Shown piece after piece: positions 41,326 through 58,769 of a DNA stretch of 64,000 bases; positions within the stretch are counted from its first letter, which is position 1, and each line of letters opens with the position of its first letter. The notes beneath the pieces were generated by a model that did no database searches, had not been told where the DNA came from, and saw only the letters and a list, made by a program, of their open reading frames with translations. A program made the position numbers and the translations under genes. This stretch comes from Myxococcota bacterium (GTDB taxonomy: Bacteria > Myxococcota_A > UBA796 > CAJQPC01): the NCBI GenBank assembly GCA_036229005.1, contig JAZAMN010000054.1:17983-81982 (forward strand), in the 5' to 3' direction.

Positions 41326-42540
41326 ATGCCTCTCCTCCTTCCCCTGCTCTTTGCCTGCACCGCCCCCAGCGACACCGCTGAGGACACCCAGACCACCGAC
41401 GACACCGGCAGCCCCTCGGCCTACGACGGCTACGTGGTCGCTGACATCGTGATCACCGACAGCGGGCGCACGACCTACTTCCAGGCGGTGCCCGAGCTCA
41501 GCGGGGACATCGACAACAGCGCGGCCGTCGAGCTGGCCGGGAACGCCGAGGTCGCCGTGGTGGGCGGCTACGTGCTGGGCAGCGACACCGAGGCGCCGGT
41601 CTGGTACCGCTACACCGTCGACGCCGAGGGTCAGATCGAGGCCGCCGGCGAGATCAGCTTCGCCGCCTACGGCTGGGCGAACATCGACTACTACAACGTG
41701 TTCGTCAGCGAGGACCTGGCCCTGTCCCTGAACACCAGCCTGGCCGAGGGCATCTGGTGGAGCCCCAGCGACCTGAGCATCCTGGGCACCATCGACATGA
41801 GCCAGGTCTTGTCCGAGGGCTACTCCACCGAGCACTTTGCCCCCACCCTGGCCGACGGCCGCATCTACCTGCCCGTGCGGCACGCGGACTGGACCAACTA
41901 CGTCATCAAGCACGAGACCCGCGTGCTGGTGATCGACACCGAGAGCCAGTCCATCGTCGCGGACCTGGCGGACGACCGCTGCCCCAGCTCCGGCAGCATC
42001 ATGCTCTCCCCGGACGGCATGGCCTACACCATGAGCGACGGCCGCAACTACTCCGCGCAGATGATCGCGCGGGCCACGGGCGCCGACGAGATCCCGGTCA
42101 ACTGCTTCCTGCGCTTTGACCCCGCGGACCTGGAAGCCGGCTTCGACAGCGACTGGAGCGTCGACGTGCCCGAGCTGACGGGCGGCCGCGAGGTGGTGAC
42201 CAACCTGGCCTCGGGCGACCTGAGCTCCGGCGTGGGCTTCGCGCAGGTCATGTACGAGGAGGAGATCGACGGCGAGCCCGTGGACTTTGGCTTCTGGAGC
42301 CAGCCCTTCTCCAAGGTGTGGCGCTTCGACCTGAGCAGCGGCACCCCCAGCGCGGAGCTGGTGGAGGGCGCGCCCTTCACCGGCATCGGCTTCGGCGGCG
42401 TGGCCGTGGAGGGCGACCTGCTCATGGGCCAGTCCACCGACGGCGCCAGCTCGGACGTGCTGCGCTTTGACCCCGACACGAACACCGCCACCGAGATGTT
42501 CACCATCGAGGGCTACTTCTACCAGGCCTTCAAGCTCTGA
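41326..42540 (+). CDS. MxcI/DUF4374-like beta-propeller lipoprotein (iron uptake)
   Basis: AGGAG RBS and MPLLLPLLFAC. GRTTY, DDRCP and GFDSDW..D..ELTGGR. Divergent from the MxcH-like receptor. Confidence 0.7.
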   Translation: MPLLLPLLFACTAPSDTAEDTQTTDDTGSPSAYDGYVVADIVITDSGRTTYFQAVPELSGDIDNSAAVELAGNAEVAVVGGYVLGSDTEAPVWYRYTVDAEGQIEAAGEISFAAYGWANIDYYNVFVSEDLALSLNTSLAEGIWWSPSDLSILGTIDMSQVLSEGYSTEHFAPTLADGRIYLPVRHADWTNYVIKHETRVLVIDTESQSIVADLADDRCPSSGSIMLSPDGMAYTMSDGRNYSAQMIARATGADEIPVNCFLRFDPADLEAGFDSDWSVDVPELTGGREVVTNLASGDLSSGVGFAQVMYEEEIDGEPVDFGFWSQPFSKVWRFDLSSGTPSAELVEGAPFTGIGFGGVAVEGDLLMGQSTDGASSDVLRFDPDTNTATEMFTIEGYFYQAFKL

Positions 42541-42548
42541 GGGTCGCC

Positions 42549-42767
42549 GGGGGGTCGCAAGACCCCCATACAAAAACCTGGGCTGCTGCGCGCACACCTG
42601 CGCGCGCGGCCGGCTCGGAGGGGGGCCGGGAGCTGCCCGACAAAGCCAAAGCGGGAGTCGGCCTTGGCCGGCTTCCCGACGCGCCGAGGGCTGCTTCCGC
42701 TCCTGTCCCCCCGGAGAGCCCGCGGAGGGTGACCCCGGCTCCGCCGGGGTTCAGGGGGGCGCGAGAC
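42549..42767 (+). repeat. Structured repeat, B-type unit (B2)
   Basis: Near-identical to ~10910-11125. Confidence 0.9.
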
Positions 42768-42835: not shown

Positions 42836-43005
42836 CTGGAGGGCCTGCCGGGGGTGGGGCCCAAGCGGCGCAAGGCGCTGCTCACGCATTTGGGAACCTC
42901 AAGCGGGTGAAGGCGGTCAGCGCGGAGGAGATCGCGGAGGTCCCGGGGATAGGGACGGGGTCGGCGCAGAAGATCTGGGCGGCGCTGCAGGAGCCAGAGG
43001 GGTAA
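42836..43005 (+). pseudogene. uvrC: Remnant of the UvrC C-terminal (HhH)2 domain, frameshifted
   Basis: LEGLPGVGPKRRKALLTH, a 1-nt frameshift at ~42890, then GNLKRVKAVSAEEIAEVPGIGTGSAQKIWAAL-QEPEG* (TAA 43003-43005). No upstream uvrC body. Confidence 0.8.
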
Positions 43006-43021: not shown

Positions 43022-43287
43022 GGCTACGGGGGTTCAATGAGCGCAGGGGGGCGGCTAGTGGCTTTCAATGAGCGCCTCGCTGAGGCTACGGGTGCTCGGT
43101 GAGCGCTTCTCCCTGAATCTTGGGCCCCAGGAGCGGAATCTGGGCCGTTTTGAACCCCAATTGGGGCCGATCGGGGGCTCTGGGCGCCAGATCGGTGGGC
43201 GGATCGCACACCGGTGGGGCGTAGCCTCGAAGGACCGCTCATTCAGAGGACGTAGCCGCCGGGTTCGCTCATTCGGCCGGCGTAGCC
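43022..43287. repeat. Inverted 3+3 box element, copy 1
   Basis: 22-bp boxes start at 43022, 43053 and 43084 (forward) and at 43205, 43236 and 43266 (reverse). Confidence 0.9.
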
Positions 43288-43324
43288 GCCAGTCCCAGGG
43301 CCTCTCCATCCTCCCGAGCCAGCC

Positions 43325-43711
43325 AGGCGCGCACACGTGCGCGCGCGGCCGGGAGTTCGGGCGGCCGAGGCGTTCGGCTCAAGCCAAAGAAGCGGCGAAG
43401 CCGCGCCGACGCGCAGGGCCGAATGCCTCGCACCCGTCCGACCGAACTCCCCGCGGGGGGTGATCCCGGTCTGCCGGGGTTCAGGGGCGCGAGCCCACAT
43501 CCCCTCTCACCACAGGCGAGGCTTCGGTGCGCAAACCTGCGCCCGAAACCCGGGAGTTCGGGCGGCCGAGGCGTTCGGCTCAAGCCAAAGAAGCGGCGCA
43601 GCCGCGCCGACGCGCAGGGCCGAATGCCTCGCACCCGTCCGACCGAACTCCCCGCGGGGGGTGACCCCGGCCCCGCCGGGGTTCAGGGGGGTCGCGAGAC
43701 CCCCATAAAAA
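43325..43711 (+). repeat. Two tandem structured repeats (A3 chimeric, A4)
   Basis: Homologous to 10517-10930. Confidence 0.9.
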
Positions 43712-51018: not shown

Positions 51019-51903
51019 CTATCGAAGCGGACCCGCTCCCAGGCGTTCGACAAGAAAGTCGCGGAGCGCGGTCACCTTGCGCGGTACCTGACCGCTTGAG
51101 GGGTAGAGGAGGACAAATCCGCCTCGAAGCTCTGGAAGCCCAGAGACCGCCACCTGCTCAAGCAGCCCATCCCGCACGTAGCTGTCCGCGACGAAACGGG
51201 GGAGCACACCGACTCCGGCGCCCCACCGAAGGAGCTCACGCAGCAGGAAGACATCGTCGCCACAGAAGCGGCTGGCGAGGTCGGCTGGCCACTCCCAGCC
51301 CAGGAACCTGCGCGGCATCACCCAGTCGAACCCCGCCTCGCCCAGCTCGCGAGGCTTGCCCCGACGAGCGAGGTACTGGGGGGCTGCGTAGAACGCGACC
51401 TCTGCATCGCAGAGCTTCCGGAGGGTGAGCGTCGAGTCCTTCAATGGGCCGGAAACCGCCCGGATGGCGAGGTCGAATCCCTCAGCCACCAGATCGACTG
51501 CTTCGTTGGTCAGGTGGACGTCGAAGCGGATGTCGGGGTGACGACGGCCAAACTGGGCCAGCAACTCGGGGAGCACGACGGTGCCGAAGTCGTGGGTCGC
51601 CGTGAGCCTGAGAAGCCCCGAAGGCTCCTCTGCCCGTTCAGGGAGTTGGCGGACGGCCTGGGCAAGGGCGGCCACATGCGGCGCTGCGCGCTCATAGAGC
51701 TCTGATCCCGCAGTAGAGAGCGCGACCGCGTGGGTGGTTCGATGCAGGAGCTCTACGCCCAGCTCCGCCTCCAAGCGTGCGACCGAGCGGCTCACGGTGG
51801 CCTTGCCTACGCCCAGTGCCTTTGCCGCCTTGGAGAAGCTCATCTCCTTCGCGACGGCGACAAAGATGGCGACGAGCTGCAGCGATGGCGCTGTTTCATT
51901 CAC
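51019..51903 (-). CDS. LysR family regulator
   Basis: SFSKAAKALGVGKATVSR, LLHRTT and DLVAEGFDLAIR. Confidence 0.92.
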   Translation of the reverse strand: MNETAPSLQLVAIFVAVAKEMSFSKAAKALGVGKATVSRSVARLEAELGVELLHRTTHAVALSTAGSELYERAAPHVAALAQAVRQLPERAEEPSGLLRLTATHDFGTVVLPELLAQFGRRHPDIRFDVHLTNEAVDLVAEGFDLAIRAVSGPLKDSTLTLRKLCDAEVAFYAAPQYLARRGKPRELGEAGFDWVMPRRFLGWEWPADLASRFCGDDVFLLRELLRWGAGVGVLPRFVADSYVRDGLLEQVAVSGLPELRGGFVLLYPSSGQVPRKVTALRDFLVERLGAGPLR

Positions 51904-51996
51904 GGATCACCAAGTTTCCAACACACCCACTGTACCACCCAAGGAACACGACTACCTTGCTTGCAACAGAAGCGGCGAACCAGCCAAGGAGTCAAC

Positions 51997-52728
51997 ATGA
52001 CCGACAGCAAGGCGAATAAGGCTAGATTGATCCTAGTGATTGGAGGAACCAGTGGCACGGGCAAGCTCGTGGCCGAGCAGCTCCTCGCCCGCGGAGAACG
52101 GGTCCGGCTCGGTGCCCGAGACCTCGAGAAGGCCCGAGCGCGGTTTGGCGACAAGGCCGAACTCGTCGAGCTCGACCTGACACGCCCAGGGGAGGCCTTC
52201 GACCGAGCGCTGGAGGGAGTGACCGGACTCGTCTTCACCGCCGCGATCCCGGGCGCCGCGGGAGAGGCCCTCGTCAAGTCGACCGAGTACGGCGGCGTGG
52301 TCGCGACCGTTGATGCGGCCCACCGCGCCGGCTTCTCCGGGAGGCTGGTCTACATGACCGCCATCGGCATCCACCACCGCACCTTCAAGATGCGGATGCT
52401 CGGGCTCCTGAAGTGGAACGGGGTGCACTGGCGCCAAGAGGCCGAGCGCGCGCTGACCGAGAGCGGCTTGGACGTTGCGATCGTGCGGGCGGCCCGACTT
52501 ACCGACAGCCCGGCAGGGCAGAGCGGTCTCGCAGTGGTTCCAGGCGACATTCCGTCGCGCTTTGGCCCGGTGGTGCCACGCGCTGATGTCGCACGAGTGA
52601 TCCTGGCGACCTTGGAGGCGCCTGCTCCCCTTCGGGACCTGTGCGTCTACACCGACGAGGGCACCGCGCCAGACGATGTGACGCTGCAGCGCCTCATCCA
52701 GTCGGGGTCACCGGCCACCACGCGCTGA
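51997..52728 (+). CDS. Atypical SDR / NAD(P)H-binding protein
   Basis: LVIGGTSGTG and AERALTESGLDVAIVR. AAGGAG RBS. Confidence 0.88.
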   Translation: MTDSKANKARLILVIGGTSGTGKLVAEQLLARGERVRLGARDLEKARARFGDKAELVELDLTRPGEAFDRALEGVTGLVFTAAIPGAAGEALVKSTEYGGVVATVDAAHRAGFSGRLVYMTAIGIHHRTFKMRMLGLLKWNGVHWRQEAERALTESGLDVAIVRAARLTDSPAGQSGLAVVPGDIPSRFGPVVPRADVARVILATLEAPAPLRDLCVYTDEGTAPDDVTLQRLIQSGSPATTR

Positions 52729-52881
52729 GTCGAGGACCAGACGTTGGGGGGCGAGGACGAGCAGAGGAGATCGGGCAAACCGGCCAAGGCCGGCCCCCAT
52801 TCGGCGTGACGAGCTCGCGTCCCCCCTCTTCGCTCGCAGCATGACGACGGGGATCCGGATCGAGTGCTGTCGTTCCGCCTC

Positions 52882-54971: not shown

Positions 54972-54982
54972 GCCACTCAAGA

Positions 54983-55059
54983 TGGTCGGGGAGGCCGGAT
55001 TCGAACCGGCGGCCCTCTGCTCCCAAAGCAGATGCGCTACCAGACTGCGCCACTCCCCG
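54983..55059 (-). tRNA. tRNA-Pro (TGG)
   Basis: Reverse complement CGGGGAGTGGCGCAGTCTGGTAGCGCATCTGCTTTGGGAGCAGAGGGCCGCCGGTTCGAATCCGGCCTCCCCGACCA folds as a cloverleaf with anticodon TGG and encoded CCA. Confidence 0.97.
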
Positions 55060-55166
55060 GACGCGACAGTGTCTAACCACATGGACGGCGGGGGCCACCT
55101 CCCAGCGGCCAGGGCTACCCGGCTTTGGAGCGGTTAGGCCCCAGGCAACAGAGAAAGGAGCGCCCC

Positions 55167-55613
55167 GTGGCCGAACTCGACCTCCGCACGATGCTGACCA
55201 ACATGGTCCCCTTCATCAAGACCGTTGGCATCCAGCTCGACGAGATCAACCGGGGCGCGGCCACCGCCACGCTCCCCTCCCGCCGCGAGATCCAGAACCA
55301 CCTGGGCACCGCCCACGCCGGCGCGGTCTACACCCTGGGTGAGTCGGCCAGCGGCGGCGTGGTGCTCTCGCTGTTCGCCGACCAGCTCCCCCGCGTGTTC
55401 ATCGCCCTCAAGTCGGCCACGGTCGCGCACAAGAAGGCCGCAGCCGGCGTCACCGTGGCCACCGCGGGTCTGAACCAGGACCCCGCCGAGATCCGCGCCG
55501 CGTACGACGAGACCGGCAAGGTCGACTTCGAGGTCCCCGTGAAGCTGCACGTGGGCGAGACGCTCACCGCCGAGATCACCTACACCTGGGCGGTCCGGGC
55601 CCCCCGCGACTGA
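55167..55613 (+). CDS. Hotdog-fold thioesterase-like protein (DUF4442/YiiD-C-like)
   Basis: [32 protein letters not shown] with GTG start. Confidence 0.85.
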   Translation: MAELDLRTMLTNMVPFIKTVGIQLDEINRGAATATLPSRREIQNHLGTAHAGAVYTLGESASGGVVLSLFADQLPRVFIALKSATVAHKKAAAGVTVATAGLNQDPAEIRAAYDETGKVDFEVPVKLHVGETLTAEITYTWAVRAPRD

Positions 55614-55848
55614 GCGTGGAGAGCGCCGCAGCGCGGTCCCGGACAGCCTGTCCTCGCCGGCGCCACCGGATCTGAGGCGGGCGCACGGCACCCACCAGAC
55701 CCGGATGGTGGGGTCGGGGTGGGTATACGCCGGGGTCGGGCTCCTCAGCCTGCTGCCGCTCGGCGTCCTGCTGTCCCTGCACGTGGCGTTCGTGGCTCCC
55801 CACTCGCCGCCGCTGGGATAGAGGCCGCTCCCCACCCTGGAGTCCCTC

Positions 55849-56331: not shown

Positions 56332-56587
56332 GGCTACGCCCCCCGAATGAACGCGGGGGGCTGGCTACGCCCGCTGAATGAGCGCATCGCTGAGGCTACG
56401 CCCCACCAGTGAGCGCTCCGGCCACCGTTTGGGGCCGAAAGCGGCGAAAACGGCCCCCAAATGGCCCCCTGAAGGCCCAAAAGCCCCAGATCGGTCCTCA
56501 AAACGCTCACCGAGTGGCCGTAGCCTCAGACGATCGCTCACTCAGGGCCGGTAGCCACCCCCGGCCGCTCACTCGCACCCGGTAGCC
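56332..56587. repeat. Inverted 3+3 box element, copy 2
   Basis: 22-bp boxes start at 56332, 56363 and 56394 (forward) and at 56504, 56535 and 56566 (reverse). A degenerate fourth box starts at 56597. Confidence 0.9.
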
Positions 56588-56716: not shown

Positions 56717-56961
56717 ATCCCGAGGGCCTCGCGGATGTTCGCTTTGGCCCGCTCCTCCAGGCGCTCCGCGTCGTGGAGACAGAGGGCAGCAAAGGAGGTG
56801 AGCCGATCCGCCCAGAGACCGGCCCGGTCCACCTCTCCCCAGTGCCCCAGCACCTCGCGCAGGTGATCGATGGAGTGGTACGCCCGAGGGGGCTGGCTCC
56901 ACCGCGACTCCAGGTCCTCCCACCACCCCGCGGCGAGCGGCAGGCCGGCGGGCGCCCTCAT
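56713..56961 (-). pseudogene. Internally deleted HD-superfamily (COG4339-like) phosphohydrolase
   Basis: RAYHSIDH and LCLHDA are joined directly to a C-terminal-like ERLEERAKANI. Only 82 aa. Confidence 0.65.
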
Positions 56962-58769
56962 GGCTGCAGCGGCCAGACCAGGGGCACCACGCTGAGCGCC
57001 ACCAGCAGGCAGATCACGTTCAGGGGCAGGCCCACGCGCACGAAGTCGCGGAAGCGGTAGCCGCCGGGGCCGTAGACCAGCAGGGTCGCGTTCGAGCCGA
57101 CGGGGCTCGCGAACCCCGCAGACGCCGCCAGCGCCACCACCACCGCGAAGGGCCTCGGATCCAGGCCTGCCGCCGCAGCGACCGAGAGCGCGATGGGGAA
57201 CACGATGGCCGCGCCCGCCGCGTTGGTGATCAGCGACGCTGCCACCACACTGAGCAGATACACCAGCGCGAGCAGCCCCACCGGCGGCAGGAAACCAGCC
57301 AGCAGCACGAGCCCGTCCGCGATGCCCTGTGCGGCGCCCGAGAGCTCCAGCGCCTGCGCCAGGCCCAGCGCGCAGGCGATGACGATCAGCACGGAGAACT
57401 CCACCGCCTGCCGGGCCTGCCGGGCGTTCAGGGCCTTGAAGGCGACCAGCGCGACCACCGACAGCATGGCCATGACCGCGATGGGGACCTCGGGGACCTG
57501 CGGCCAGAGCTTGTGCGCGAAGGTGGACCCCACCGGCAACACGACCAGCAGCCCCAGCACGCCCAGGGCTGCCCGCGCGGACTTGAAGTTGGGGGGCGCC
57601 TCGGCCCCGCTCAGCGCGGACACCAGGTAGAAGTCCACGCTGTCCCGCCAGGTCTCATGGAATCCGGGGGACGCCGACAGCAGCAGCGTATCGCCGGGAC
57701 GCAGCTCCAGGTCACCGATGCGCTGGTGCAGGCGCTCGCCCGCGCGATGCACCGCCAGGATCGCCGCGTCGAAGCGCCGCCGGAAGCCCACCTCCCGGAC
57801 GGTGCGCCCCAGCATGCGGCTGCGGTGGGAGACCACGACCTCGAACAGATGGCGCTCCATGGAGCTCAGATCCAGGTCCTCGACCGGGACCAACCCGGGG
57901 AAGCTGCGCAGCTCGGCCACGCTGGAAGCCACGCCGGAGAGCACCAGCAGGTCCCCTGCGCTCAGCAGATCCTGGGGCGCGACCGGACGCACGATCCGAC
58001 CGTCAGCGCGCTGGATCTCCGCGAGGAAGAGACCTGGGAGCTGCCGCAATCCGGCCTCACCGACGGACTTCCCGATCAGCGGAGAGTCGGACTGCACCGC
58101 CAGCTCAGCGAGGTACTGCCGGGCTGCATCGACATCGCGCACGACCTCGGAGAGCGCCTGCCGCTCCCCCAGCATCTTCCAGGCCACGGTGGACAAGTAG
58201 ATCAGGCCCAGCACCACCGTGGGCACGCCCACCCAGGCCATCTCCAGCATGCCCAGGGGCTCCAGGCCCGCCTGGACCAGCCGGCCCGACACCACCAGGT
58301 TGGCGCTGGTGCCGATCAGCGTGCAGGTGCCGCCGAGCATCGCCGCAAAGCCCAGGGGCATGAGGTAGCGCGAGGGCGTCTCCCCAACGCGCCGGGCGAA
58401 GCTGCGCGTGGCTGGGATGAACATCGCCACGATGGGCGTGTTGTTCACGAACGCGGAGAAGAACGCCGTCGGGAGCAGCAGCCGGACCAAGCCGCGCTGG
58501 GGACCGTTGTCCGTCCCGAAGACCGCGCGGGTGATGAGCCGCAGGGCGCCCGTGTGTCGGACAGCCGCGGCGACCACGAACAGCGCCCCGACGGTGAGCA
58601 CCGCGGGATCCGAGAAACCGACCAGCGCCTGGTCGAGGTCAGCGACGCCCCCCGCGACGGTGAGGGCCAGTCCGCCGAAGAGCGCCATCGGCGGCCGCAC
58701 CCTGTCCAGGGCGATCAGCAGAGTGATGCCGGCGAGGACGGCGAGGACGAACCAGGCTTGGACAGGCAT
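56958..58769 (-). CDS. SLC13-family permease with two TrkA-C (RCK_C) domains
   Basis: SAFVNNTPIVA, LGGTCTLIGTSANL, SPLIGKSV and YGPGGYRFRDF. Confidence 0.92.
   Translation of the reverse strand: MPVQAWFVLAVLAGITLLIALDRVRPPMALFGGLALTVAGGVADLDQALVGFSDPAVLTVGALFVVAAAVRHTGALRLITRAVFGTDNGPQRGLVRLLLPTAFFSAFVNNTPIVAMFIPATRSFARRVGETPSRYLMPLGFAAMLGGTCTLIGTSANLVVSGRLVQAGLEPLGMLEMAWVGVPTVVLGLIYLSTVAWKMLGERQALSEVVRDVDAARQYLAELAVQSDSPLIGKSVGEAGLRQLPGLFLAEIQRADGRIVRPVAPQDLLSAGDLLVLSGVASSVAELRSFPGLVPVEDLDLSSMERHLFEVVVSHRSRMLGRTVREVGFRRRFDAAILAVHRAGERLHQRIGDLELRPGDTLLLSASPGFHETWRDSVDFYLVSALSGAEAPPNFKSARAALGVLGLLVVLPVGSTFAHKLWPQVPEVPIAVMAMLSVVALVAFKALNARQARQAVEFSVLIVIACALGLAQALELSGAAQGIADGLVLLAGFLPPVGLLALVYLLSVVAASLITNAAGAAIVFPIALSVAAAAGLDPRPFAVVVALAASAGFASPVGSNATLLVYGPGGYRFRDFVRVGLPLNVICLLVALSVVPLVWPLQP

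Follow-up and report, generated by a model that had tools for sequence, protein, structure and literature searches.

Helically phased inverted box arrays in a Myxococcota genome form a dispersed repeat family whose own RAYT-like HUH nuclease likely binds and probably copies it

The 64,000-nucleotide stretch of DNA analyzed here, hereafter the window (G000:C54:17983-81982, from a 6.4-Mb assembly of an apparently marine Myxococcota lineage, with 70% G+C on 74 contigs), contains two elements in which boxes of the type GGCTAC-N8-RRTGAGCG face each other as two triplets. This raises the question of what such elements are and which protein acts on them. A sequence-only reading had described boxes with periods of 31, 31 and 31, 30 bp in the two arms of element 1 and a uniform period of 31 bp in element 2, and all 12 of 12 boxes are in place (Table 1): nine matches are exact and three contain one mismatch, vs. 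a mean of 0.13 and a maximum of 1 match in shuffles. The inner left box of element 2 is of the X type, so that its orientation is opposite to that of element 1. Two motifs reported as common to both elements are present as described, i.e., AATGAGCGCMTCGCTGAGGCTACG at 43067 and 56377, one copy per element, and CCAGATCGGT at 43187 and 56486, 8 bp ahead of the first reverse box. The 24-mer AATGAGCGCMTCGCTGAGGCTACG has two occurrences in the entire genome, both within the window, and is therefore not a feature of the family. In 73 of 86 family-A arms, the ACCG core of CCAGATCGGT is found at positions 9-12 of the spacer, and the spacer of element 1 contains the inverted half-site ATCGGT (43191-43196). 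A tRNA at 54986-55059 is the sole Rfam match in the window, no RNA family being matched by the elements, and a Pfam scan of 20 window ORFs revealed neither a recombinase nor a transposase.

Table 1. Features of the two window elements, box families of the genome and HUH/Y1 genes adjoining them.
Feature	Position	Strand	Description
Orphan uvrC 3' end	42836..43002	+	Frameshifted; 90% identity to the end of intact uvrC on contig C16
Element 1, left arm	43022..43105	+	Three family-A boxes (43022, 43053, 43084), period 31; inner box Y type
Element 1, spacer	43106..43204		99 bp, gap class 121; short A/T tracts, ~10.5 bp apart
Element 1, right arm	43205..43287	-	Boxes 43205, 43236, 43266; periods 31, 30; inner box X type
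Element 1, right flank	43288..43332	+	~45 bp, common to sister copies G000:C16:69373 and C60:1589; belongs to copied unit
Element 2, left arm	56332..56415	+	Three family-A boxes (56332, 56363, 56394), period 31; inner box X type
Element 2, spacer	56416..56503		88 bp, gap class 110; phased A/T tracts
Element 2, right arm	56504..56587	-	Three boxes (56504, 56535, 56566), period 31
Family A			GGCTAC-N8-RRTGAGCG; 47 arrays, both window elements included
Family B			AGCTAC-N8-RRTGCRCG; 14 arrays
Family C			CGCAAG-N7-GAACGCAAC; 31 arrays
Family D			GGCATC-N7-GAACGCCCG; 20 arrays
Family E			CGCAAC-N7-GARTGCACC; 13 arrays
Gene on C27 (P0001)	G000:C27:37209-37985		Adjoins family A; 118 bp to nearest element
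Gene on C52			Adjoins family B; 165 bp to nearest element
Gene on C32			Adjoins family C; -45 bp (overlap)
Gene on C24			Adjoins family D; 5 bp to nearest element
Gene on C21			Adjoins family E; 6 bp to nearest element

In a de novo scan of the genome, a lag of 31 bp proved singular, with 2044 triple 5-mer recurrences vs. 14-44 at other lags (non-multiples of three). Five box families account for this signal. They comprise 125 arrays and occupy ~0.5% of the genome, in agreement with the earlier proposal of a dispersed site or a non-autonomous mobile element. Two inward-facing arms of two to seven boxes are present in 115 of the 125 arrays, and lone arms are situated at contig ends, are interrupted by insertion sequences or possess a degenerate partner. 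Steps within arms amount to 31 bp in 602 of 608 cases, and the gaps between arms fall into discrete classes (38/39, 48/49, 59/60, 68-70, 80, 90, 100/101, 110-112, 121/122, 131 and 152/154 bp) that follow a 10.4-bp ladder (R 0.956, n = 115), as expected from the suggestion that the boxes are helically phased protein-binding sites. Inside 55 long spacers, A/T recurs with a period of 10.5 bp (z ~50 vs. shuffles), while the flanks are flat. Among the family-A elements 31 of 43 are polar, combining one X-type with one Y-type inner box, and the arms of an element have a G/C skew in common with each other and with the intervening spacer (n = 115, rho 0.47-0.63), its sign agreeing with that of the 10-kb flank in only ~62% of elements. 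According to crude gene calls, 49 of 101 elements lie between convergent genes (vs. 188 of 942 gaps), eight of 101 are flanked by divergent gene pairs and two of 115 reside inside a gene; the convergent excess and the small number of divergent sites argue against promoter control.

Translation of the DNA between neighboring elements revealed that the genome carries five genes for HUH/Y1 (RAYT-like) proteins, each adjoining a different box family (Table 1), whereas a random 800-bp interval falls within 200 bp or less of an element in 0.76% of draws. The gene next to family A, encoding P0001, is located on another contig than the window, and the element upstream of it is interrupted by an IS110-like sequence. 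The earlier statement that no cognate gene is adjacent consequently holds for the window, but not for the genome, where the cognate HUH/Y1 gene is found on contig C27. P0001 shares 49-69% identity with its paralogs in the genome and exhibits the motifs NHVH (residues 42-45) and YIHLNP (99-104), with H43, H45, Y99, N103 and P104 invariant across 109 homologs. Its structure model (pLDDT 97) has TnpA-REP (PDB 4ER8) as best structural match (Foldseek E 3.8e-5; Z 11.4, rmsd 2.5 over 132 for P0001 residues 1-151), and the two thus possess the same catalytic fold. The C-terminus (167-242) resembles DnaA domain IV (1j1v; Z 4.9, rmsd 2.1 over 76, i.e., in the range of common folds), and matches to Pfam helix-turn-helix models are weak and below cut-off in three of the five paralogs. 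The RAYT profile NF047646 yields 31-37 bits for the five proteins, below its cut-off of 80, and PF01797 does not match them. A functional link between elements and protein is very probable, and direct binding of the boxes by the protein is predicted with good confidence.

With G000 counted, 59 of 154 genomes in the order and 70 of 182 in the class contain homologs. Flanks of the 29 best-ranking loci outside G000 yielded 559 six-mer recurrences and 19 positive loci at a lag of 31 bp, while other lags gave at most 169 recurrences and at most four positive loci. Inverted 31-bp array pairs accompany 32 of 59 clade genes and 28 of 54 outside G000, the 59 genes being the top matches plus the paralogs of three genomes and not a random sample; ten other lags score at 0 to 4 of the same genes, lag 32 being positive at four of 59. 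The spacing thus extends to relatives, where the sequence-only reading had proposed that further arrays be sought. No such pair was seen at 26 of the 54 genes from other genomes, and 80 distant Y1 loci from many phyla were devoid of adjacent inverted 31-bp arrays (0/80). The pairs reside on one side of 30 and on both sides of two of the 59 genes, and each clade gene is associated with its own box sequence, the 31-bp period being kept as the boxes change across the order. Boxes adjacent to genes of G128, G129 and G077 recur on eight, seven and four contigs of their own genomes, respectively, and are absent from four other searched genomes; in G128 the gap is 111 or 121 at all seven two-armed sites. 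Up to 15-17 paralogs are present in G021, and congener G003 (95% complete) matched neither the gene nor the pattern. Owing to the lineage specificity of the box sequences, exact patterns of family A or A/B were absent from all 40 relatives, from viral contigs and from a wider collection of genome contigs that possibly excludes the genome studied here; a degenerate three-box pattern was detected in five of 153 other genomes of the order. Arrays of other design also occur beside clade genes, namely a palindrome array with a 25-bp period upstream of L027 (G002) and an array with a 52-bp period upstream of L035 (G064).

Evidence for copying within the genome comes from element 1, whose copies on C16 and C60, embedded in other flanks, share 84 and 82% identity with it. 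The C16 sister follows an intact uvrC gene, and ahead of the window copy lies a frameshifted, 90% identical 167-bp copy of the uvrC 3' end, which indicates that the unit was duplicated together with neighboring DNA. Most family-A spacers are old (median identity 0.45 in 912 comparisons), with a few recent sisters in unrelated flanks. Comparison with empty sites, as suggested by the sequence-only reading, proved informative outside the window elements: the orthologous gap of congeners is free of an array at three of three loci with both flanks alignable (seven genome comparisons). At a fourth locus, C22:69338, and for one genome at C8:121835, a single flank could be aligned. At C22:76223 the gap measures 75 bp in G001 vs. 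387 bp here. At two of the three loci, G000:C20:151639 and C8:121835, the elements are accompanied by extra coding-looking DNA (~0.5 and 2 kb) that is not found in the congeners. Both window elements are kept in a strain diverged by ~1.6% (contigs of the independent runs X2 and X3), in which the spacer of element 2 has gained 11 bp behind 56458, shifting its gap class from 110 to 121, and contigs from four runs showed no empty allele of the window elements. In three congeners the surroundings of element 2 are rearranged, and element 1 resides in a lineage-specific patch. Neither a conserved outer terminus nor a cleavage motif nor a target site was found for the elements, and a CT dinucleotide present at some of the duplication junctions is too weak a signal to be considered.

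Other repeats and rearrangements occur in the vicinity. A second structured repeat of ~200 bp (window positions 42540-42760 and 43327-43710; 15 BLAST matches on six contigs) brackets the uvrC-plus-element segment. The window copy and another recent duplicate at C57:94369 both lie among copies of this repeat, which could be the driver of duplication. An IS110-like element (38-aa fragment, weak match to NF033542 with E 6e-4) is inserted at GCT of CGCTCA. Its insertions lie in, or in register with, family-A boxes, with one end on C22, C29, C58 and C71 and the other on C15, C27 and C29, such that the element appears to target these boxes; a further end on C48, followed by GCTCACTC, is located outside an array. 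The end of another insertion sequence, which we take to be IS256-like by its C-terminus, interrupts or abuts two family-B elements (C53 start/C73 end and C28 start/C63 start). At 56766 the X2 contig contains ~344 extra bases that X3 lacks, and contigs of both runs lack 1798 bp at 51019-52816 (a LysR gene and most of a NAD-binding gene). In all three congeners, the block consisting of the tRNA and a DUF4442 gene (54981-55615) is inverted relative to the transporter gene (56958-58769); element 2 sits between these two blocks in the window.

With regard to known systems, the proteins resemble TnpA-Y1 subclass 2.1 (2.1.2), or RAYT group 1 (PMC6006769; PMC5581495), in NHVH, YIHLNP and W-P-W-S motifs, a length of ~260 aa, a C-terminal Bac_DnaA_C/HTH-like domain, several diverged paralogs per genome and the lack of REPs. 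P0001 agrees with subclass 2.1 in the features tested, the comparison being made with the motifs, fold and HTH tail given in the available descriptions. Subclass 2.1 was described as the largest RAYT group, present in 14.9% of strains, and was tentatively equated with TIRYT (Quentin et al., 2018; PMC6006769). In the accessible text of that survey, its flanks are reported to be without REP-like sequences, recognition of flanking repeats by the HTH is doubted and fork targeting is suggested (Quentin et al., 2018). Unlike the subclass as published there, the clade studied here has abundant cognate arrays, and the second half-box co-varies with the HTH helix. It also differs from the RAYT profile by falling below the NF047646 cut-off and by lacking PF01797. 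As in TIRYT/TIRtrons (Di Nocera et al., 2013; PMC3733652), a Y1 gene is accompanied by nearby non-REP inverted repeats; each gene has its own repeat family, which can be dispersed and moderately abundant and can include dimers or clusters. TIRs, however, bracket the gene, often with GGGGWSAS (PMC3733652), whereas here the whole two-armed element is positioned on one side in 30 of 32 positive genes, and GGGGWSAS occurs inverted on both sides in two of 59 and in some flank of 20 of 59 of these high-GC loci. In contrast to TIRs as described in the available part of that paper, the repeats here consist of two-part boxes in tandem every 31 bp, in phase with the helix; the word "helical" has zero occurrences in the portion of PMC3733652 at hand, though its Fig. 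9 may show related repeats.

Similarities also exist to the REPIN-RAYT system as characterized in the sections available to us (Bertels and Rainey, 2011; PMC3116915), including a single-copy nuclease gene per repeat family, a replicating unit made up of an inverted doublet around a variable spacer, a position between genes and copies that may take flanking DNA along. Unlike REPINs, the elements lack a GTAG-footed palindrome per unit and have two to seven boxes in each arm, their spacer is quantized by helical turns and the protein possesses an extra HTH. The system is hence of the TIRYT/RAYT (subclass 2.1) kind, and its repeats fit neither the REP nor the TIRtron definition. A description of 31-bp phased arrays associated with RAYT-like genes was not found in the literature consulted, to which figures and supplements (e.g., the additional files of Quentin et al.) may be an exception. 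Bertels et al. (2017; PMC5581495), according to the text available, scored flanking 16-mers, and we infer that such scoring would miss boxes with a variable 8-bp core.

A candidate recognition code emerged from a sliding partial Mantel test on 29 gene-box pairs, for which four genes with unclear register had been dropped. The first half-box signal maps to residues 55-96, peaking at 73-84 (r 0.29), and more weakly to 13-36 and 115-132. The second maps to residues 211-234 (peak r 0.30), corresponding to the predicted recognition helix; the maxima at 73-90 and 211-228 have a partial r of 0.26-0.30 (p 0.002, 29 genes), values that a Mantel test across kin overstates. Residues 73-90 of P0001 align with the W94-R104 region of 4ER8, which reads GTAG according to the accessible text of Quentin et al. 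(PMC6006769). Arg220 coincides with a box ending in "AC" in ten of 13 genes, vs. one of 16 genes without Arg220. This label changes eight times on the tree, only four independent pairs are well supported, and these agree in 3.4 of 4 on average (sign test p 0.125-1, underpowered). The apparent co-variation between half-boxes and protein domains is a strong lead, but no proof.

The window elements are copies of a dispersed repeat family of ~260 bp that lies next to the gene for its own RAYT-like HUH nuclease, P0001. This protein likely binds the family and probably copies it, so that the elements are most likely non-autonomous mobile elements of a TIRYT-type system. Each protein would read one 22-bp box on double-stranded DNA in two parts, with a loop of the HUH domain (residues ~55-96) contacting GGCTAC and the helix-turn-helix (~211-234) contacting RRTGAGCG. 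Box steps of three turns, a whole-turn gap and a bendable spacer would place the proteins on one face and allow the DNA to be wrapped or looped. This complex would expose one strand, the HUH/Tyr site would nick outside the arms and the nicked strand would be transferred elsewhere, sometimes with neighboring DNA; the last steps are proposed because Y1 enzymes are established to cleave and join single strands (PMC8266576, as far as available). Mobilization of the elements by the protein is a prediction made with reasonable confidence. More tentatively, we consider it possible that this HUH/Y1 clade has dropped hairpin recognition altogether, and that several protein copies recognize a bipartite code in the double helix, gather on the same side of a phased and bendable site of 250-300 bp in a wrapped or plectonemic state, open a strand by their own action and copy the site along with neighboring DNA.

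Several other explanations deserve consideration. Multiple inward-facing boxes of ~22 bp are found at the ends of Mu, Tn7 and IS21, and a spacing of three turns is known from Lrp sites. On account of such resemblances, the elements could be regarded as MITEs of DDE transposons, as Lrp-type wrapping sites or as partition centromeres, all of them analogies drawn in the sequence-only reading, with the HUH genes as bystanders. This view is largely refuted and very improbable. TG...CA ends occur in 17 of 115 elements vs. 19.3 in shuffled pairs, and the longest flanking direct repeats average 4.30 vs. 4.07 without a common length (repeats of at least 7 bp at eight of 115 elements vs. ~3 expected), extending to the whole genome what had been noted earlier for the window. 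Moreover, no long element with one arm at either end exists among the genome arrays, and a one-to-one pairing with box families in many genomes is not expected of bystanders; the partners are HUH/Y1 proteins instead. Arm sites of RIT and other tyrosine recombinases were candidates as well and were dropped once the HUH genes appeared. An ordinary REPIN-like fold-back, in which the enzyme reads a single-stranded hairpin built from both arms and slippage of units incidentally gives rise to the 31-bp period, would be in line with the action of characterized TnpA-REP enzymes on ssDNA hairpins (PMC8266576, as far as available), with the folding of elements 1 and 2 as single strands through their boxes (z -4.1 and -6.2), with GTAG on the reverse strand of family-A and -B boxes and with the homogenization of neighboring units within an arm (identity 0.49-0.78 at variable positions). 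Nevertheless, it appears improbable, as complementarity is lower between facing units within an element (0.33-0.38) than between units from different elements (0.43-0.49) in all five families, this lower likeness being due in part to one strand that is G-rich throughout, and as a REP-type stem follows GTAG in only two of 346 GTAG boxes vs. 6-13 in shuffles. In addition, a hairpin would require neither whole-turn gaps nor the A/T period, and the 31-bp period stays constant across the order while box sequences vary. The earlier argument against a hairpin stands insofar as the variable positions of the arms are not complementary, but not for the element as a whole, which still folds.

The main rival states that the protein binds the arrays without moving them, as a domesticated DNA-organizing or fork-associated factor whose sites owe their spread to recombination, gene conversion or other repeats. 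Strict phasing across ~125 diverged copies, stability of the elements between strains, the lack of defined ends and the divergence of the paralogs (49-69% identity), which is unlike that of active insertion sequences, are all compatible with this notion, as is the fork targeting suggested for subclass 2.1 in the available text (PMC6006769). It is nonetheless unlikely: the sites are not conserved between congeners, G003 contains neither gene nor pattern, the catalytic residues are invariant and the position of the elements, with 49 of 101 between convergent genes and eight between divergent ones, does not favor it. Five parallel families and the 15-17 paralogs of G021 are also better explained by selfish diversification than by one host function.

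Mobile elements served by their own RAYT-like nuclease, as we favor here, would give this little-studied enzyme group its first testable target. Sites specific to each family are abundant in the clade, natural pairs of gene and box number in the dozens and a candidate for the recognition code is available, and substrate, specificity and mechanism are therefore directly testable in vitro. If the proposed code is true, specificity would be re-programmable by changing a small number of residues in the HTH helix and the HUH loop, and this would account for the possible coexistence of up to 15 or more orthogonal gene-repeat pairs in a single genome. If recognition indeed takes place on phased double-stranded DNA, it would represent another mode by which HUH transposases locate and open their substrate.
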